64,000 bases of DNA, taken from Escherichia phage Esco_phi_B-01. Below, one piece after another: positions 4,254 through 60,947 of the stretch. Below the pieces are notes generated by a model that was given only the letters and a program-made list of their open reading frames with translations, made no database searches and had not been told where the DNA came from. The stretch is from sequence record OP292222.1; one strand, 5' to 3'. Each line of letters opens with the position of its first letter. Position 1 is the first letter of the stretch. A program made the position numbers and the translations under genes.

Positions 4254-4292
4254 TTAATACTCCTGTTTACAAGTTAAAAATCCTATGTTAAG

Positions 4293-4535
4293 ATGGCTTT
4301 ACCAAACTCAACAAGAGAATTTGTTATGGATAAGGTTAAAGTACATTTTTTACATGAATCTGGACTTAATTTTATAGAAATTGCTAAAAAATTAGGTGGT
4401 ACTGCTAAAGACATGGCTAAAGCATGGGTTGATGTGGAACAGGCCAAGGCCAAATTTAAGTCAAAAGAGAAAGTAGTATATCGCAAACGTCTAATCAATA
4501 AGGTTCGGCGCAAAGCGCGTTCTAGTTCAAAGTAA
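4293..4535 (+). CDS. Small basic protein, possible helix-turn-helix
   Basis: 80 aa, Lys/Arg-rich C-terminus; weak RBS, start uncertain (alternative ATG 4326). Confidence 0.4.
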   Translation: MALPNSTREFVMDKVKVHFLHESGLNFIEIAKKLGGTAKDMAKAWVDVEQAKAKFKSKEKVVYRKRLINKVRRKARSSSK

Positions 4536-4649: not shown

Positions 4650-5657
4650 ATGTTCAAGAAATATAGCAGTCTGGAAAACCACTACAACAGTAAGTTTATC
4701 GAAAAACTCCGTACCAATGGTTTGACTGGTGGCGAATGGGTAGCACGTGAGAAGATTCATGGAACCAACTTTAGTTTAATCATAGAACGTGACGCAGTCA
4801 CATGCGCCAAGCGCACGGGTCCAATTCTCCCTGCTGAAGATTTCTATGGTTATGAAATTGTACTTAAGAACTATGCTGATTCTATTAAATCCGTACAAGA
4901 TATTATGGAAACTTCGGCAGCCGTATCTTATCAAGTTTTCGGTGAATTCGCTGGAACAGGCATTCAGAAGAACGTTGATTACGGTGATAAAGATTTTTAT
5001 GTATTTGACATTATTGTTACAACCGAAAGTGGCGATGTGACTTATGTCGACGATTATATGATGGAATCATTTTGTAAGACGTTCAAATTTAAAACGGCGC
5101 CACTTTTAGGTCGTGGTAAATTTGAAGACCTTATTAAATTGCCAAATGATTTGGATTCCGTCCTTCCTGATTATAATTTTACAGTAGATAATGTCGGGCT
5201 AGCCGAAGCTAATGCTCATGTGTGGAATGCTGAAGCAAAAGGCGAAGTATTTACCGCTGAAGGGTACGTATTAAAACCTTGTTATCCACTTTGGCTCCCT
5301 AATGGAAATCGTGTAGCGATTAAATGTAAGAACTCTAAATTCAGCGAGAAGAAAAAGTCTGATAAGCCTATTAAAGTTGCAGTAGTATTATCTCAAGACG
5401 ATTTAGATTTATTACAACAATTCACTGATTATGTGACTGTTAACCGTATTAACAACGTTATCAGTAAGATTGGTGAAGTATCACCTAAAGATTTCGGAAA
5501 GGTAATGGGACTGACGGTCCAAGATATTTTGGAAGAGGCAGCCCGTGAAGAATTAGAATTAACCGATGCAGAAAACCCTGTTGAAGTTAAAAAGCAGCTC
5601 GTTGAGTGTGTAAAAGATACGCTACGGGCCGTGTGGATTGAATTAGTATCCAAATAA
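4650..5657 (+). CDS. rnlB: RNA ligase 2 (Rnl2)
   Basis: 335 aa; near-colinear with recalled T4 Rnl2 ([20 protein letters not shown]..., KIHGTN adenylyltransferase motif I). Confidence 0.9.
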
Positions 5658-5662
5658 ACAGT

Positions 5663-5692
5663 AAAGGGACCTTACGGTCCCTTTTATTTTTC
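5663..5692. terminator. Bidirectional hairpin terminator between rnlB and gp24 paralog
   Basis: gggacc-ttac-ggtccc then T-run. Confidence 0.6.
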
Positions 5693-6964
5693 TAGTGGTG
5701 GAAGTTTAACACCAAGATAAGAACTCAACTGGCTTTGGTTAGCCATTTTGTCCATATCAGAGCCATCAATAATGCGGGCTTCTTTATCGTCCTTAGCGAC
5801 GGTATAAGGGTTTGCAGTCAATGCATAACGAGCAAGCAATGCTACTGTAGGTTGTAAGCTTTCCGGGTCAACAATAACCTTAAATTCACCTACTGAAGTA
5901 TCACCTTCTTCATCAACCACATCCAAACCTTCCGTATAAGGCGCATAATATAAAGATGCGACCGTCTGTCCTTCACCCATCTGGGCATTTACACCAACAA
6001 TAACATAATCACATGGACTATTCATATCAGCATAAAGAGGCAGACCATTCTTTAATACACCATAGGCCAATTCGTCTTGGTCTTCCTTTTTCTCAACCCA
6101 ACCGGAAGCGGCGAGAATAGCAGCACAACGAGAACTAGCTACTGCATAAGTCCCAGCGAAAGAAGTTTGACGTTGGACGGCAGAGTTCATCTCACACATG
6201 TAATAATATAATGTACGAGCACGGTCCTGGGCGTTATCGTAACGTGGGTTGGTAAGGTCTAATACACCTTTTTCAGAAACACCTTGGACTTTAAAACGAG
6301 AACTCACCGTAATTAATGACTGTAATACATCCTTATTAATTTCTTCTGCCATTTGGATGCCTAGCAGATTTTCAACGAAATTAGGAGCATTAAACCCGTT
6401 TGATTCTAGGTCCTGGGCTAATTCGACTGTCAATGAAGTTTTCAGTTTACGTGATTTAACTTCAGATTGCCATTTATCAATACGGAAGCCTGCTTCAGCA
6501 ATTTCAGGATGGCCTTGTTCGAATTTAGAAGTAATAGCAGCATCCGATACCATACGAATATGTCCGGCTGCCACTGCTTCAGAAATAACTTCACCGAGGT
6601 CGGTTTCTGTGGTTCCAGCGAAAGGAGATGCTTCTAGAACTTTAAACACCACACTTTCAAACTGGAACATATCGCCGGCTGCATAAGCTGTAGACGAATC
6701 GGCAAATTCAGGAATATTTTCACGTTCCGACATACCAATCTGGCCCGCAAATGTAGCACCACCAAGATAAGTCATTTTGTCGTCAGGGTTAAGTACACGA
6801 ACCCCGTACAGAGCAGCAACAGGTTGGCTTGTTTTTTGTTCAGCAACTAGGGCTTTAAAGATTCGTTTATTAGTTGCTTGGGTGTATGAAAGAAGAGCAG
6901 GACGGCCAACCGAGTTGGCAGCCGTCAATGTGGATTCTTTAATTAGGTCTATAATCTTAGACAT
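5684..6964 (-). CDS. Second gp24-family head vertex protein (diverged paralog)
   Basis: 426 aa; gp24/gp23 fold motifs shared with adjacent gp24 (RIDKWQSEVKSRKLKT, ELAQDLESNGF, EINKDVLQSLITVS) but strongly diverged. Confidence 0.85.
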   Translation of the reverse strand: MSKIIDLIKESTLTAANSVGRPALLSYTQATNKRIFKALVAEQKTSQPVAALYGVRVLNPDDKMTYLGGATFAGQIGMSERENIPEFADSSTAYAAGDMFQFESVVFKVLEASPFAGTTETDLGEVISEAVAAGHIRMVSDAAITSKFEQGHPEIAEAGFRIDKWQSEVKSRKLKTSLTVELAQDLESNGFNAPNFVENLLGIQMAEEINKDVLQSLITVSSRFKVQGVSEKGVLDLTNPRYDNAQDRARTLYYYMCEMNSAVQRQTSFAGTYAVASSRCAAILAASGWVEKKEDQDELAYGVLKNGLPLYADMNSPCDYVIVGVNAQMGEGQTVASLYYAPYTEGLDVVDEEGDTSVGEFKVIVDPESLQPTVALLARYALTANPYTVAKDDKEARIIDGSDMDKMANQSQLSSYLGVKLPPLEK

Positions 6965-8247
6965 TAATCAGCCTCGTAAATAATTGCTGGAAGTTTAACA
7001 CCAAGCAGATAAGACATATTACTCTGTCCGGCCATTAAATCCATATTGGTGGCATCGATAACACGAGCTTCTTTATCGTCTTTAGCTACGGTGTACGGGT
7101 TAGCGGACAGTGCATAACGAACCATCAGAGAAATAGAAGGCTGTAATGAATCCGGGTCGACAATAACCTTATAAGCACCAACGTGTTCTGGGTCGTCTAA
7201 ATCCAGGCCTTCTGTATACGGGGCATAGAAAATAGAACCGACAACTTCATTACCGCCATAGTTCTCTTTAACACCTACGATAACATAATCCAATGGGCTG
7301 TTAACGTCACAGAACAATGGTAATCCATTCAACAAATAACCATAGGCAGTTTCTGGGAGCCAATTATTATCTTCAGGTCTATGTTTTAACCAGCCAGAAC
7401 CTGCAAGCATTGCAGCCACACGACTTGAAGCCACAACAAACGTACCGGAATAAGAAGTAGTTTTCTGGATTTCAGAATTCATCTCACAAACAATTTCATA
7501 AAGTTTACGTGCAGATTCTGGAGCACTATCATAAGTCAAATCGATGATGCCATTATCAGATACACCCGTAACTTTATAGCGTTTAGATACGGTTATCAGA
7601 GATTGCAGAACGTCTTTATTAATTTCATCTGCCATTACTGTAGCCAGGAGGTCTTCTAAGAATGCAGGGGCGTCGAAGCCATTTGATTCCATATCCTGGG
7701 CCAATTCTACAGTCAAAGCAGTCTTCAATTTACGGGTCTTAACAGGAGCATTCCATTTATTAACCTGGAATACAGCATCAGAGATTTCTACATTACTCGC
7801 TTCGAATTTAGTGGTATGGGCTGCATCAGGAACCAGACGACATGTTAATGACACCAAACCTTCTTGAAGGGCATCAGCCAATCCTGTAGCGCTAGTGGAT
7901 GCGAGTGGGCTTGCTTGAAGAGCCTTATAAACCACATTCTGATACTTAAAGTAGTCACCCTTGGCAATCGCCTGGGCTTTATCTGTGAGTTCTGGGATAG
8001 TTTCACGGTCTTTAGAACCAACTTCACCACCATAAACAGCACCAGTTTGGAAACTGAATTCATTATCAGGGGTAAGATATTTGACACCGTACAATGCAGC
8101 AATAGGCTGACTAGTACGTTGTTCAGCGATGATATCGCGATAAATTAGTTTAGTGGTAGCACGGGTCAAAGCAACAAGATTAGGGCGACCCAATGAGTTG
8201 CTGGTAGTAGTTGTTGACTCGCGCAGTAATTCGTTAATCTTTGCCAT
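6964..8247 (-). CDS. 24: Head vertex protein gp24
   Basis: 427 aa; MAKINELLRESTTT... matches recalled T4 gp24; stop overlaps start of paralog at 6964. Confidence 0.9.
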   Translation of the reverse strand: MAKINELLRESTTTTSNSLGRPNLVALTRATTKLIYRDIIAEQRTSQPIAALYGVKYLTPDNEFSFQTGAVYGGEVGSKDRETIPELTDKAQAIAKGDYFKYQNVVYKALQASPLASTSATGLADALQEGLVSLTCRLVPDAAHTTKFEASNVEISDAVFQVNKWNAPVKTRKLKTALTVELAQDMESNGFDAPAFLEDLLATVMADEINKDVLQSLITVSKRYKVTGVSDNGIIDLTYDSAPESARKLYEIVCEMNSEIQKTTSYSGTFVVASSRVAAMLAGSGWLKHRPEDNNWLPETAYGYLLNGLPLFCDVNSPLDYVIVGVKENYGGNEVVGSIFYAPYTEGLDLDDPEHVGAYKVIVDPDSLQPSISLMVRYALSANPYTVAKDDKEARVIDATNMDLMAGQSNMSYLLGVKLPAIIYEAD

Positions 8248-8275
8248 TGCGCTTTCCTTATTGAGGGTATATGTT

Positions 8276-8283
8276 TATTTATA
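8276..8283 (-). promoter_or_regulatory. Late promoter TATAAATA (minus) for gene 24
   Basis: Reverse complement of tatttata, about 30 nt upstream of gp24 start. Confidence 0.45.
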
Positions 8284-8288
8284 AAGTT

Positions 8289-8340
8289 GTTTACAGCAAG
8301 GTTCTCACGTGTTACTATAGTCCTATCAAAACACGAGGAG
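8289..8340 (+). promoter_or_regulatory. Early promoter with stem-loop (PeSL-like) driving the 88-aa ORF
   Basis: GTTTAC, 18-bp spacer, TACTAT, then conserved AGTCCTATCAAAAC. Confidence 0.5.
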
Positions 8341-8347
8341 ATTAAAA

Positions 8348-8614
8348 ATGAACAAATTAAACTTTATCCGTACCACGCTTTCTAACCTTGACAAAGACAT
8401 CAAAGCTCTGGTAGAAAAATTTGGTACCAATCCTAACGGTAATGCAGTTAATGCATTGGTTAAGAAATACGAAGCTCTGGCTTATGAAACCGACTTCTGG
8501 TGGAACGGCGAATACTCTACCCATACCAAAGACAAATATGGTAACTGGCTGAAAATCCAAGAAAATCGTATTGACTTCCGTGATATCATCAACCGTCGAG
8601 TTAAGATTGCATAG
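8348..8614 (+). CDS. Hypothetical protein at the position occupied by segD in T4
   Basis: 88 aa; GGAG RBS; own promoter and downstream terminator. Confidence 0.5.
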   Translation: MNKLNFIRTTLSNLDKDIKALVEKFGTNPNGNAVNALVKKYEALAYETDFWWNGEYSTHTKDKYGNWLKIQENRIDFRDIINRRVKIA

Positions 8615-8629
8615 TACAGAAACAAGAAT

Positions 8630-8647
8630 GGGAGACCGAAGTCTCCC
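8630..8647. terminator. Hairpin terminator (tetraloop) shared by gp23 and the 88-aa ORF
   Basis: gggagac-cgaa-gtctccc. Confidence 0.6.
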
Positions 8648-8663
8648 ATAATAAGGTTAGGTA

Positions 8664-10223
8664 TTAGATACCTTTAACATAAACGCGACGGAAGTAACCA
8701 TTCAGACCGAGGCTGTTAACGATGTCAGGCATACCGCTCTGAATACGTTTGGTAGGAGCCTGTGCAGACGGGTCAGCGAACGGGTTAATACCGATACCGT
8801 AACGAGTTTTGAAGCCCATTACCGGCTGGAAGTTCTTCGGATCGGAACCGCGCAGTGGGGTAAGTGCAACGTAAGGAGCGTAGTAGATACCTGCGTCCAT
8901 TTCGTTGGAACCTTTATAACCGATGGTGAAGTAATCAGCACGGGCATACTGGTCGATGTAAACGCGATATTTACCACCAAGAACACCGGCAAATACTGCT
9001 TTAGTGGTGTCAACGTTGAAACCTTGACCCAGACCTTGAGCTGCATAACTTACAGAAGTATCAACTGCAGCCAGTACGTTAACTACGTTACGGGAAGCGA
9101 TGATGAAGTTACCAGCACCACGACCGGTCTGACGAGCGATTTCGGCTGCTTCTTTATCAATCTGGAACAGAAGGGCTTTAAAGCTCTCACCGGCCCAACG
9201 AGCACCACGGATATCAATCGGGTCCTGGAAGTCAAACACACCAGCTTTAGCGCCAACGGTGTTGGTCATACCAGATTTACCAACCTGTGCAGAGTAGTTA
9301 ATCCAATCGATAACTTCACGGTTGATTTCGAGCATAATTTCGGTAGCAAGGATACCGGACAGTTCAGCATCTGCATCCATACCGTGTACTGCACGAAGGT
9401 CCTGTGCCAGTTCGATGGAATAGCTTGCTTTCAGCTGACGGGATTTAGCTTCGATAACTTGTTTATCGATACGGAAGCCCATTTCGTTCCACGGGTTATC
9501 CTGAGAACCGTTAAAGCCTTCCTGAAGTTCAGCGATAGAAGTAGCCATACCTTCAGCCAATTCAGCCAGCTGACCAGCTTCCAACAGAGCAGTTACGGCA
9601 ACATCCAGTTTAGCGGCATCAGTAGCAGCAGCATCAACGGTTACGGCTTCAACAGCCTGGAAGTGTGCAGCACCGGTAGCTTCGAAGAAGTGAGAATAAA
9701 TTTTACCAACTTCCAGAACTTTACCTGCAGCCAGTGCTTCAAAAGTCTGAGCAGCGCCCTGACCAGAGAACATAGCGTTCGGAGCATACATCGGGTGGAA
9801 AGCTTCTTTAGCGCCAGCAGCGATAGGGTCTTTACCGTATACTGCACGCAGTGCAAATACCTGGCCGGTAGGGTTATTCAGAGGCTGAACACCACAAATA
9901 TCAAAAGCAATCAGATGAGGAATAGCACGACGAACCATACCCATTACTGCCGGCCCAATCTGAGTTACAGCACCAGAGGTCTGGCCAGCTGCGATATTGG
10001 TAGCATCATAACCGTGGTCACCACCGATTTCAGCTTCGGTCAGGAAAGAACCAAATGCTTCAGAGATTTTTTCGTCACGATATTCAGGAGCGGTCAGAAT
10101 ATCTTGTTCCTGGTTTTCGAAAATTTTAGCGATGATAGCTTGTTTAGAAGCACCAACGATTTCAGGAAGAGCTTCGTTTTCCAGCAGAGCGGACCATTTT
10201 TGAACTAATGCATTCTTTTTCAT
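8664..10223 (-). CDS. 23: Major capsid protein gp23
   Basis: 519 aa; long stretches identical to recalled T4 gp23 (AEIGGDHGY..., QIGPAVMGMVRRAIP, DNPWNEMGFRIDKQVIEAKSRQLKA). Confidence 0.97.
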   Translation of the reverse strand: MKKNALVQKWSALLENEALPEIVGASKQAIIAKIFENQEQDILTAPEYRDEKISEAFGSFLTEAEIGGDHGYDATNIAAGQTSGAVTQIGPAVMGMVRRAIPHLIAFDICGVQPLNNPTGQVFALRAVYGKDPIAAGAKEAFHPMYAPNAMFSGQGAAQTFEALAAGKVLEVGKIYSHFFEATGAAHFQAVEAVTVDAAATDAAKLDVAVTALLEAGQLAELAEGMATSIAELQEGFNGSQDNPWNEMGFRIDKQVIEAKSRQLKASYSIELAQDLRAVHGMDADAELSGILATEIMLEINREVIDWINYSAQVGKSGMTNTVGAKAGVFDFQDPIDIRGARWAGESFKALLFQIDKEAAEIARQTGRGAGNFIIASRNVVNVLAAVDTSVSYAAQGLGQGFNVDTTKAVFAGVLGGKYRVYIDQYARADYFTIGYKGSNEMDAGIYYAPYVALTPLRGSDPKNFQPVMGFKTRYGIGINPFADPSAQAPTKRIQSGMPDIVNSLGLNGYFRRVYVKGI

Positions 10224-10244
10224 GTGTTGTATAACCTTATTAAA

Positions 10245-11060
10245 TTAAGAAATTCGAGATGCTGCGATTGCAGACAGGTCCGCGAAGGACAGGGTAGGCT
10301 TAGCGCCTTTTTCTTCAACTGCTTCCGAAATATAATTCAGTGCTGCAGCATCGTCTTCAGTTTTATTTATAGCGGCTTCGGTGATTGGTTTTTCAACGTC
10401 AGTCTGGCCTTTAACCATTTCAACGATAGCGCCAATTTTTTTACCAAATGCATCGGAATAATCCATGCCTTCTACCAGAGAACTAACTTTTTCTTTCTGA
10501 GATTCAGTCAGGTCTTTAGTTGCTTCAGTCAACGCAACTTCACGCTGTACGTAATTAATATATGCGTCACGCTTACCAACTTCTTCGAACAGACGAGCGG
10601 TTTCATCTTTCTGCTCTTGGAGTTCTTCTTCCATTTCAGCAACAACATCCACTGCTTCTTCTGGAACAACCACATTGTGTTCAACAAACAGTTCTTTCAT
10701 ACCCATCAACATGGATTCGAACAGTTCGGCTTTAATACCTTTATCAACAGCCAGCTGGTTTTCAGCCATCCATTCTTTAGCGACGTGGTCAAGGAAACGA
10801 CCGGCAGCTTCTTGGATTTTCTTATCAGCTTTTTCTTCAGCTTCTTCTTTATTTTTCTCAACTTCTTCTTCCGCTTTTTCAGCGATTTTAGCGATGTGAG
10901 ATTCAGCCAGTTTAACGGCGTGTTGCTTGACGGTAGCTTCGAATACAGTGCCGAAAGTTTCTTTTGCTTCCGGAGAAATATTAACTGATTCGAAAATACT
11001 GTCAAGAGCAACGGAAGCATCAATATTCTGTGCTTCGGCAATCAGTTGTTCTTTAAGCAT
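10245..11060 (-). CDS. 22: Prohead core scaffold protein gp22
   Basis: 271 aa, acidic coiled-coil, between gp21 and gp23. Confidence 0.85.
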   Translation of the reverse strand: MLKEQLIAEAQNIDASVALDSIFESVNISPEAKETFGTVFEATVKQHAVKLAESHIAKIAEKAEEEVEKNKEEAEEKADKKIQEAAGRFLDHVAKEWMAENQLAVDKGIKAELFESMLMGMKELFVEHNVVVPEEAVDVVAEMEEELQEQKDETARLFEEVGKRDAYINYVQREVALTEATKDLTESQKEKVSSLVEGMDYSDAFGKKIGAIVEMVKGQTDVEKPITEAAINKTEDDAAALNYISEAVEEKGAKPTLSFADLSAIAASRIS

Positions 11061-42347: not shown

Positions 42348-42395
42348 GTTTACAAGGTCTATAGGCATGATACTATAGACCTATCAAAACAAACT
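42348..42395 (+). promoter_or_regulatory. PeSL-type early promoter
   Basis: GTTTAC, 17 bp, TACTAT, AGACCTATCAAAAC; palindrome ggtctatag/ctatagacc spans the -10. Confidence 0.55.
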
Positions 42396-45866: not shown

Positions 45867-45884
45867 AGGAGACTTCGGTCTCCT
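45867..45884 (+). terminator. Hairpin terminator
   Basis: aggagac-ttcg-gtctcct then TTTT. Confidence 0.55.
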
Positions 45885-45921
45885 TTTAGGGGGTTTAGAC
45901 CAAAAATAATTTCACAAAGTT

Positions 45922-45975
45922 GTTTACACCTCCTTTAAACATGATACTATAGACCTATCAAAACAACAGTGTGAA
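45922..45975 (+). promoter_or_regulatory. PeSL-type early promoter
   Basis: GTTTAC, 17 bp, TACTAT, AGACCTATCAAAAC. Confidence 0.55.
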
Positions 45976-45985
45976 GGAGAGTAAA

Positions 45986-46249
45986 ATGGATAATTATGGC
46001 GAATTGTTTAATTTCTTTATGAAATGCGTTCCTGAAGAATTTGGTGCTACTGTTAACGATATTAAGGTTATAGGTGATGACCATCCCATATTTGAAACTT
46101 ACGCAGTAATGGGTAATGATGATGGACAATGGTACACCGTAAAGGTTGTGGTTAATATGTTTGCCGCCGAAGGTTATGTTAAATTGTCTACCAAAGTTTA
46201 CCATGATAACGATTTTGATGCGGAAGATTATTTCAATAATATGAAATAA
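45986..46249 (+). CDS. Hypothetical protein
   Basis: 87 aa from ATG 45986 with AGGAGA RBS. Confidence 0.5.
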   Translation: MDNYGELFNFFMKCVPEEFGATVNDIKVIGDDHPIFETYAVMGNDDGQWYTVKVVVNMFAAEGYVKLSTKVYHDNDFDAEDYFNNMK

Positions 46250-47380: not shown

Positions 47381-47398
47381 GGGAGACTTCGGTCTCCC
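47381..47398 (+). terminator. Hairpin terminator
   Basis: gggagac-ttcg-gtctccc. Confidence 0.5.
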
Positions 47399-54644: not shown

Positions 54645-54699
54645 GTTTACTTCTCCTGTAGGCATGATACTATAGACCTATCAACTACAGGAGATTAAA
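54645..54699 (+). promoter_or_regulatory. PeSL-type early promoter
   Basis: GTTTAC, 18 bp, TACTAT, AGACCTATCAA; stem ctcctgtag/ctacaggag pairs the spacer with the SD region. Confidence 0.55.
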
Positions 54700-55116
54700 A
54701 TGACTCGTATCAACCTTACCTTAGTATCTGAATTGGCTGACCAACACTTAATGGCCGAATATCGTGAATTACCACGTGTTTTCGGTGCAGTTCGTAAGCA
54801 TGTTGCTAACGGTAAACGTGTTCGTGATTTTAAAATCAGCCCTACTTTTATCCTTGGCACAGGCCATGTTACATTCTTTTATGATAAGCTTGAATTTTTA
54901 CGTAAGCGTCAAATTGAGCTTATAGCCGAATGTTTAAAACGTGGCTTTAATATCAAGGATACTACAGTCCAGGACATTAGTGATATTCCTCAGGAATTCC
55001 GTGGTGATTATGTTCCTCACGAAGCTTCTATCGCTATTTCACAAGCCCGTTTGGATGAAAAAATTGCACAACGCCCTACCTGGTACAAACATTATGGTAA
55101 GGCGATTTATGCATAA
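54700..55116 (+). CDS. denV: Endonuclease V (pyrimidine dimer DNA glycosylase)
   Basis: 138 aa; essentially identical to recalled T4 endoV ([34 protein letters not shown]...). Confidence 0.95.
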
Positions 55117-56584: not shown

Positions 56585-56641
56585 GTTTACATCTCCTGTA
56601 GACGTGGTACTATAGACCTATCAACTACAGGAGATTACAAA
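56585..56641 (+). promoter_or_regulatory. PeSL-type early promoter
   Basis: GTTTAC, 18 bp, TACTAT, AGACCTATCAA; stem tctcctgtag/ctacaggaga. Confidence 0.55.
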
Positions 56642-57100
56642 ATGTCAGAAATTAATTCAGAAGTATTCATCCGCCGCAACAAATTACGTCGTCAGTTCGA
56701 AACCGAATTTCGTGAACTTAACGCGTCCATCAAAAAAGCCGCCATTAAGAGCGGTGTCCCAGCTTTCTTTATTAAGTACTCTAATCACTTGTTGGACCGT
56801 GCTATCCAACGTGAAATTGACGAAAAATATGTTTTCTCTTTGTTCAAGAAGCTCCATAATCATGTTAAAGAAATCCATGAATTTTTAATCCAGGAGCCTC
56901 TTCCTGACGTAGAATCTGAAATTATCCCAGGTAAGGTGTATCGTCCACTGCGTCTCGAGATTACCGATAAAACCTTATGGTTGGGTATGACCGTAGATCG
57001 TAAACATCCTGATAAAGGATATTCATTAAAATGTCGTATGGCATTTGTTAACTCTAAACGTTTAGAAGGTAAAACCAGCACGAAAGTAATCTATCTTTAA
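56642..57100 (+). CDS. regB: RegB site-specific endoribonuclease
   Basis: 152 aa (T4 153); EVFIRRNKLRR, HLLDRAIQREIDE, RLEITD match recalled T4 RegB. Confidence 0.8.
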   Translation: MSEINSEVFIRRNKLRRQFETEFRELNASIKKAAIKSGVPAFFIKYSNHLLDRAIQREIDEKYVFSLFKKLHNHVKEIHEFLIQEPLPDVESEIIPGKVYRPLRLEITDKTLWLGMTVDRKHPDKGYSLKCRMAFVNSKRLEGKTSTKVIYL

Positions 57101-60707: not shown

Positions 60708-60764
60708 GTTTACATCCTCTAGGAACGTGATACTATAGACCTATCAACTAATGAGGAGAAAGTT
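60708..60764 (+). promoter_or_regulatory. PeSL-type early promoter
   Basis: GTTTAC, 17 bp, TACTAT, AGACCTATCAA. Confidence 0.55.
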
Positions 60765-60947
60765 ATGTTAACTACCGAACAGATTGAGAAAATTATTAAA
60801 CTCGCCCAGCATATTGAAAACGCATCCAATGACCTAGCTGTTGAATATTGTGAAGGCTATTCATATTCCGGAATAGAGCAGTGTAAACGAGATTTGGCTA
60901 ACTCTAAAGCAGCCTTGGTTGAGTATCTTAATGAGTTGAAAGCATAA
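60765..60947 (+). CDS. Hypothetical protein
   Basis: 60 aa; GAGGAGA RBS. Confidence 0.45.
   Translation: MLTTEQIEKIIKLAQHIENASNDLAVEYCEGYSYSGIEQCKRDLANSKAALVEYLNELKA

Follow-up and report, generated by a model that had tools for sequence, protein, structure and literature searches.

Why does a small gene with an early-type promoter lie within the capsid gene cluster of a T-even phage, on the strand opposite to its neighbors? The question is raised by the spacer between genes 24 and 23 of Escherichia phage Esco_phi_B-01 (sequence record OP292222.1), which was analyzed in a window of 64,000 nucleotides (nt), the whole stretch of DNA under study. The genome is that of a Dhakavirus near phage JS10, with nt identity of 98.6% over positions 8200-8700 and 98.2% over 5601-10300. 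The spacer is 416 nt long and contains a + strand unit, consisting of a promoter, a leader and an open reading frame (ORF) for 88 amino acids (aa), which is antisense to both flanking - strand genes, as the original prediction from the sequence had described it. The unit is probably an autonomous early-expression cassette for an accessory gene, inserted in a plasticity hotspot between the gene 24 late promoter and the gene 23 terminator, on the opposite strand. Our good confidence in this reading covers the cassette, the gene and the hotspot, and stands apart from any guess at the function of the protein.

The promoter and its family

A scan of positions 7800-9100 found a sole sigma-70-like site, at 8289-8318, with 9 of 12 consensus matches plus a TG. 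The -35 and the TAYWAT -10 elements, with a 17-nt spacer, fit the consensus TTTACW-N17-TAYWAT of the promoters in the PeSL (promoter/stem-loop) cassettes of phages T4 and PST (PMC4122927). T4 early promoters are defined by an architecture of UP, -35, TGn and -10 elements (PMC2988021). Upstream of the -35 element, where an UP element would lie (-40 to -60), positions 8265-8288 are A/T-rich (GGTATATGTTTATTTATAAAGTT), and the same bases also build the - strand late promoter of gene 24.

The promoter belongs to the phage's own family of early promoters and leaders, far beyond chance. The pattern GTTTAC-N12-15-TGnTAnnnT has 10 occurrences in the window, where 0.12 would be expected. The combined -10 and leader motif, TAYWATAGNCCTATCAA, is present in 9 copies against 0.02 expected, all on the + strand, eight at 42-64 kb and one at 8313. 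With a weight matrix made from the other eight copies, 8313 scores 28.5 bits and is the top non-training site of 127,958 positions; the best site outside the family scores 14.8 bits. The family motif [AG]TG[ATG]TA[CT]TAT[AG]GNCCTATCAA, on the + strand ahead of a Shine-Dalgarno sequence and an ATG, is matched at this locus, where the leader after the -10 element reads AGTCCTATCAAAACAC and then GAGGAG. Thus the ORF does have its own GTTTAC/TACTAT promoter (GTTTAC at 8289-8294), from the same cassette as the early region, as had been proposed.

The genes behind the sister cassettes are T4 denV and regB homologues, one for an internal protein, and several small ORFs without known role; the denV and regB homologues and the internal-protein gene are of the prereplicative class. 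The gene in the 23-24 spacer shares its promoter and leader family, and its strand, with these small early genes. It differs from them in position: the nearest cassette with the same -10 and leader motif is at 42371, about 34 kb away, and the copy at 8289 is isolated in the late head-gene cluster. Neither a + strand late promoter nor a MotA box was found ahead of the ORF. Judged from sequence alone, the promoter would be active early, with transcription predicted to start near 8325-8326.

A looser early-type match, GTTTACA-N-TGtTAAGAT, lies at 4265-4294 on the + strand, upstream of the 24.x/rnlB genes, without the CCTATCAA leader. In four other cassettes of the window (45922-45992, 54645-54705, 56585-56647 and 60708-60770) the promoter spacer (e.g. 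TCTCCTGTAG) reverse-complements the leader including the Shine-Dalgarno sequence (CTACAGGAGA). There, RNA reading through from upstream would bury the site of ribosome binding in a hairpin (-8 to -18 kcal/mol); RNA begun at the cassettes' own promoters is unstructured. Such sequestration by the promoter spacer was considered for the cassette at 8289 and rejected, RNAalifold giving a weak 6-bp helix of -1.5 kcal/mol with at most 2 compensatory pairs.

The 88-aa protein

Small size and the absence of an annotated function, and nothing else, speak for a chance open frame behind a coincidental promoter-like site. We give this idea practically no credence; it is refuted by the promoter statistics above and by conservation, substitution pattern, family membership and fold. 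Conservation in relatives, which the original prediction had left to be checked, was found by tblastn in 227 phage records. The product matches PHROG 6003 over its full length (E = 1.9e-48, residues 1-88 to profile positions 1-88 of 90). Between 88-codon alleles, the Nei-Gojobori pairwise ratio of nonsynonymous to synonymous substitution rates (dN/dS) is 0.04-0.13 in the annotated frame; it exceeds 1 in four of the five other frames and is 0.08-0.29 in the reverse frame that shares the gene's third codon positions. Allele differences fall mostly at third codon positions, e.g. 5, 4 and 20 by position. The ORF is a real gene under strong purifying selection. It is already present in the JS10 annotation as a hypothetical protein (EpJS10_0170).

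The product is a basic (pI 9.4), hydrophilic, soluble protein of 10.4 kDa. An AlphaFold2 model made from 16 family members (pLDDT 94, pTM 0.79) consists of a helix (residues 3-25), a second helix (31-48), a β-hairpin (52-61/67-71) and a third helix (77-87). The invariant residues are F6, L21, an N30-G31-N32-A33 motif, A45, W51 and Q71.

An exhaustive profile search of 1.84 billion representative proteins gave 10 hits. One homologue, of 87 aa, belongs to a row of small ORFs on one strand and has its closest relative in the Vequintavirinae phage ABPH49; another, of 84 aa, adjoins a GpJ-type tail-fibre gene on a siphovirus contig. Because homologues occur in these Vequintavirinae and siphovirus contexts, the family is not tied to capsid genes; it is a rare, small accessory protein of enterobacterial phages. 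Two giant repeat proteins (P0022, P0024), whose matches consist of 9-11 short stretches, were judged repeat or composition artefacts, and one weak partial match from a scan of bacterial genomes, in a Flavobacteriales metagenome-assembled genome, was disregarded. A 90-aa family member (P0017) is named 'NADPH-dependent curcumin reductase CurA' in one source, an evident misannotation. In a 160-aa ENA protein (P0020), 32 aa of the ORF are joined to sequence of no relation to it, probably as an assembly chimera.

Some calls of the gene are truncated. In 310Ecol104PP (P0007) a frameshift is evident from the protein, RB69ORF188c is called with 41 aa (BFVD) and the calls in phage mogra (P0018/P0019) with 51 aa; the 41-aa and 51-aa calls, known from protein entries, could be gene-calling differences. 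Frameshifted and shortened calls fit a dispensable gene.

No relative of known function was found by sequence or fold searches. Pfam gave no family at E <= 10, hence no GIY-YIG domain in the protein, PADLOC and NCBIfam gave chance-level matches only, and a profile search of PDB sequences gave nothing significant. The basic helix-helix-β-β-helix layout was considered as HU/IHF-like and this reading was rejected, IHF appearing only at Foldseek E = 8.7 with TM 0.29. A literature search on RB69ORF188c, the locus tags, PHROG 6003, segD and RB69 transcriptomes found nothing usable. A tentative suggestion, to which we give rather less than even weight, is that the protein might be a host-directed early accessory factor that binds a host target, in take-over or in counter-defence, as other small early proteins of the T-even group do.

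States of the spacer among relatives and the link to segD

T4 carries the homing endonuclease gene segD between genes 23 and 24, as the original prediction had stated. Comparison across T4-like genomes gave four states of this spacer (empty, ORF only, ORF and segD in tandem, and segD only), bearing out the proposal that it is a plasticity hotspot. In the empty state, seen in Tequatrovirus SA20RB and Jiaodavirus Mineola, the late promoter and the gene 23 terminator are only a few bases apart and enclose no early promoter. Most Tequatroviruses look empty, T4 flank matches spanning only about 470 nt; in Pseudotevenvirus Miller and Marfavirus F48 the spacers are about 90 nt long and contain no annotated gene. 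The ORF alone is present in this genome, in JS10 and JS98, in some Tequatroviruses (G28), in Gaprivervirus VR26 (63% aa identity to this genome) and in Mosigvirus JS09/RB69ORF188c (32%). ORF and segD are both present in F2-like Tequatroviruses and in Dhakavirus IME08 (38 records at a coverage of at least 80%), the segD ATG following the ORF stop by 3 nt on the same strand. segD alone is found in T4, T6 and about 50 other records, and a segD-like gene lies at the same site in Erwinia phage Gravdalen (Winklervirus). SegD, of 219-223 aa, is unrelated in sequence to the 88-aa protein; F2 SegD and T4 SegD are 59% identical.

The suggestion that the ORF stands where T4 has segD is therefore right as to the spacer, which is the same. 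The two genes are not simple alternatives, since they are in tandem in F2-like phages and IME08 and T4 keeps the promoter and leader before segD. Alignment with the empty-site T-even phages shows the cassette to be a sharply bounded insertion/deletion unit, the indel starting directly after the gene 24 late promoter and reaching to the hairpin of the gene 23 terminator or just short of it. In the segD-bearing relatives segD is contained entirely between the ORF stop and AAACAAGAAT, and the same AAACAAGAAT-hairpin block then follows. These junctions show a physical coupling of the cassette to segD in some genomes, and by the same comparison this genome has a vacant segD site at about 8615-8619.

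In an alignment of the gene 24-proximal spacers, the late promoter, the -35 element and a -10 element at the same position are conserved in all phages compared. The late promoter forms a column block invariant across all seven aligned phages, T4 included, and in SA20RB it is annotated as such. The -35 sequence GTTTACA is kept in the Dhaka-, Tequatro-, Gapriver- and Mosigvirus copies and is ATTTACA in T4. The TGn and leader motif is common to the ORF- or segD-bearing Dhaka-, Tequatro- and Mosigviruses, more divergent in T4 and not present in VR26. The T4 spacer, of 90 bp (NC_000866 about 107233-107322, with the -10 at 107254-107259), reads ATTTACA-N-TGATATTAT and then runs into segD; its site TTTACA-17-TATTAT with TG, at about 107253-107281 of NC_000866 (L006 5254-5282, - strand), has 10 of 12 consensus matches plus TG. 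Gravdalen has TTTACA-17-TATAAT at the same position before its segD-like gene (L025 428-456; 11 of 12). According to a 2010 review, no segD-specific promoter is identifiable and early promoters are not used by any homing-endonuclease gene of T4 (PMC2988022). The conserved TTTACA-17-TAYWAT with TGn on the segD strand in T4, F2-like phages, IME08 and Gravdalen suggests otherwise.

The T4 segD locus, which encodes a free-standing GIY-YIG homing endonuclease (Edgell et al. 2010, PMC2988022), resembles the present one in its intergenic site, its antisense orientation, the homologous late promoter, early-type promoter and leader upstream, and a terminator hairpin at the same position. The difference is that there is no endonuclease here but an unrelated 88-aa protein, and that both genes stand in tandem in some relatives. 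The ORF might thus have come as a passenger of a segD-type homing element, promoter-(ORF)-segD-hairpin, that spread by double-strand-break repair with co-conversion, segD having since been lost here. This possibility, which we regard as somewhat doubtful, concerns origin and mobility and is compatible with the ORF as a working gene. It is favored by the known co-conversion of neighboring markers by Seg endonucleases (references in PMC2330249, PMC10448857). It is also favored by segD lying behind the ORF and the same promoter in F2 and IME08, the same promoter type directly before segD in T4 and before the segD-like gene of Gravdalen, and the TA(C/T)AG that segD-less alleles retain, matching the last bases of segD. 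In addition, ORF alleles cross genus boundaries, and the 22-nt hairpin block AATGGGAGACCGAAGTCTCCCA is identical in 13 loci of four genera whatever genes precede it, be they ORF only, ORF and segD, or endonuclease only; the empty sites differ, and other hairpins are found in the empty-site phages, T4 and VR26. The shared hairpin is weak evidence, however, because the same hairpin is a general terminator element of this genome. Most carriers of the ORF are without segD, none of the five Mosigvirus or Gaprivervirus loci examined has it, and the distant homologues of the ORF in Vequintavirinae and siphovirus contigs have no adjacent endonuclease.

The cassette has a history unlike that of its flanks. 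Nucleotide identity of this genome to G28 (Tequatrovirus) is 69% in gene 24, 94% in the promoter spacer, 89% in the ORF, 92% in the spacer between ORF and gene 23, and 79% in gene 23. For F2 (Tequatrovirus with segD) the values in the same order are 68, 80, 94, 95 and 81%, and for Gaprivervirus VR26, which is closer by its flanks, 82, 58, 64, 52 and 90%. In sliding windows the identity switches sharply at about 8250 and about 8650. Synonymous divergence (dS) from Tequatrovirus is 0.23-0.51 in the ORF, 0.6-0.9 in gene 23 and 2-3 in gene 24; from VR26 it is saturated in the ORF and 0.44-1.0 in the flanks. The ORF alleles form two groups, this genome and JS10 with F2 and phage 005 (about 95%), and JS98 and IME08 with G28 (95-97%). 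Each group spans Dhakavirus and Tequatrovirus, and therefore at least two inter-genus transfers took place. The alleles thus indicate that the cassette was exchanged between genera at least twice.

The cassette may have moved by segD co-conversion, by PeSL-type recombination or, in mixed infections, by ordinary recombination within the conserved late promoter and terminator. PeSL-type modular shuffling would bring in the cassette by homologous recombination, possibly through a mini-circle, between repeated promoter/stem-loop cassettes. PeSLs reportedly flank variable ORFs, and in core regions they are said to accompany plastic non-essential genes (PMC4122927; PMC2839356). The locus resembles PeSL cassettes (Arbiol et al. 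2010, PMC2839356; Comeau et al. 2014, PMC4122927) in its strong sigma-70-type TTTACW-N17-TAYWAT promoter, its A/T-rich upstream region, Shine-Dalgarno sequence and ATG, its many repeats in the genome, and the small, variable, non-essential ORF that it adjoins, present in some relatives and absent from others. The promoter and leader are near-identical to those of eight other cassettes, giving about 20-40 nt of homology, and a true stem-loop and promoter with the same hairpin sequence is found at 45867-45950. The defining upstream stem-loop is, however, absent here: only AAAGTT separates the gene 24 late promoter from the early promoter, leaving 5-6 nt between late promoter and -35 element with no inverted repeat there. 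The only hairpin is downstream of the ORF, where it is oriented for the - strand as the gene 23 terminator. The locus is inside a conserved head-gene block and not in a hyperplastic region, and with a single promoter cassette it offers no repeat pair for excision. Arrival by PeSL-type shuffling is thus unlikely.

The hairpin, the transcript end and the favored reading

The hairpin begins 13 nt past the ORF (Table 1) and folds with -18.9 and -19.8 kcal/mol on the two strands (z = -4.2). The terminator scan calls it on the - strand only, where the UUCG loop stem is followed by UCUUGUUUCU. The + strand tail is AAUAAGG and has no U-run. The proposed bidirectional hairpin is therefore not supported in this genome; only the - strand version is terminator-like, and so the hairpin is the gene 23 terminator. 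The equivalent hairpin in VR26 has T-runs on both sides, TTTTT on the + side. An Rfam search of 8000-8900 gave no match. The 18-nt hairpin GGGAGAC-TTCG-GTCTCCC at 8630-8647 recurs at 47381-47398 and, near-identical, at 45867-45884, both as + sense terminators of early genes. The copy at 45867 is just upstream of the early promoter at 45922, a true PeSL arrangement.

Table 1. Features of the gene 24-gene 23 spacer and its flanks
Feature	Position	Strand	Basis
Gene 24 (copy a), capsid vertex protein, 427 aa; left flank	6964-8247	-	ORF list; JS10 annotation, 98% nt identity
Gene 24 late promoter, T4-type, TATAAATA	8276-8283	-	exact - strand match
-35 element GTTTACA (TTTACA 8290-8295)	8289-8295	+	promoter scan
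Extended -10 element: TGT 8310-8312 and TACTAT 8313-8318; 17-nt spacer after -35	8310-8318	+	promoter scan
Conserved leader; AGTCCTATCAA at 8319-8329, Shine-Dalgarno GAGGAG at 8335-8340, 7 nt before ATG	8319-8347	+	sequence, motif statistics, weight matrix
88-codon accessory gene, ATG start	8348-8614	+	ORF list, PHROG 6003, dN/dS, AlphaFold
Vacant segD insertion point, TAG/TACAG/AAACAAG	8615-8619		junction comparison: this genome, G28, F2, IME08
Gene 23 intrinsic terminator hairpin AUGGGAGAC-UUCG-GUCUCCCAU; U-rich tail 8627-8618	8628-8649	-	terminator scan, folding
Gene 23, major capsid protein, 519 aa; right flank	8664-10223	-	ORF list; JS10 annotation

Gene 24 is tandemly duplicated in this genome (5684-6964 and 6964-8247, - strand), the copies being about 64% identical in nt; the tandem is also found in JS10, IME08, VR26 and a 173-kb metagenomic phage contig (L021). 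On either side of the cassette, at 8256-8267 and 8645-8656, are the arms of an imperfect inverted repeat of 12 nt, 10 of them complementary. It was taken as probably due to chance, its left arm overlapping the region where ribosomes bind for gene 24.

In T4, early RNA complementary to late genes ('anti-late' RNA) was observed long ago. With the promoter directed toward gene 23 and a hairpin that has no U-tract on the + strand, early antisense transcription across the hairpin might damp premature capsid expression, the ORF being incidental. Such a role at the RNA level is highly improbable. The protein sequence is under strong purifying selection and its fold is predicted with confidence, unrelated phages have members of the ORF family that are not near capsid genes, and most Tequatroviruses and several other genera are without the promoter altogether.

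An autonomous cassette for expression of an accessory gene would work as follows. Unmodified host sigma-70 RNA polymerase would fire the T4-type promoter, at about 8325, right after infection. The short unstructured leader and strong Shine-Dalgarno sequence would lead to efficient translation of the 88-codon message. The product would be the 10-kDa basic soluble protein with its helix-helix-β-hairpin-helix fold, encoded by what is probably a non-essential accessory gene. The + strand transcript would reach the gene 23 hairpin from the wrong side and probably end there inefficiently, or Rho may end it a little farther on, in the untranslated antisense RNA of gene 23. The cassette appears to be the expression platform for segD too, which in some relatives is inserted 3 nt past the ORF stop and in T4 replaces the ORF behind the same promoter.

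Several points weigh against this reading. The terminator scan and folding gave no evident + strand terminator after the ORF. A literature search found no transcript, transcription-start, proteomic or genetic data on the 88-aa gene. The Mosigvirus (32%) and Gaprivervirus (63% aa) alleles of the ORF are very divergent, which fits old vertical descent or separate acquisitions; the ancestral state may have been empty or ORF-bearing.

Morons of lambdoid phages, described by Hendrix and co-workers, are autonomous promoter-gene-terminator units inserted in the late operon. The likeness to the present unit lies in an independently transcribed, dispensable gene between conserved structural genes, with sharp boundaries and a history unlike that of the flanks. 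The differences are that this is a virulent T-even phage, that the predicted expression is early lytic and not from a prophage, and that the unit has no evident terminator of its own.

The cassette is an accessory early gene and homing-endonuclease landing site of the hotspot kind well documented in T4-like genomes. What was a hypothetical protein of more than 200 coliphage genomes becomes a defined accessory gene, early in type and laterally exchanged, for which there is a confident fold model and which could reasonably be entered in screens for host range or anti-defence. The comparison is also relevant to the segD promoter, a small open point of T4 biology. A bolder scheme, which we consider a long shot, is that promoter-ORF-(segD)-hairpin is a mobile module of enterobacterial T-even phages, that the early promoter is the 'missing' promoter of segD, and that the 88-aa cargo is a host-range or counter-defence factor; such a role of the cargo would be the reason why the cassette persists after loss of the endonuclease. 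If so, segD-type endonucleases would break the reported rule that homing-endonuclease genes of T4 lack early promoters, and at this locus the carriage of cargo genes into a capsid operon by such endonucleases could be studied in a natural system.

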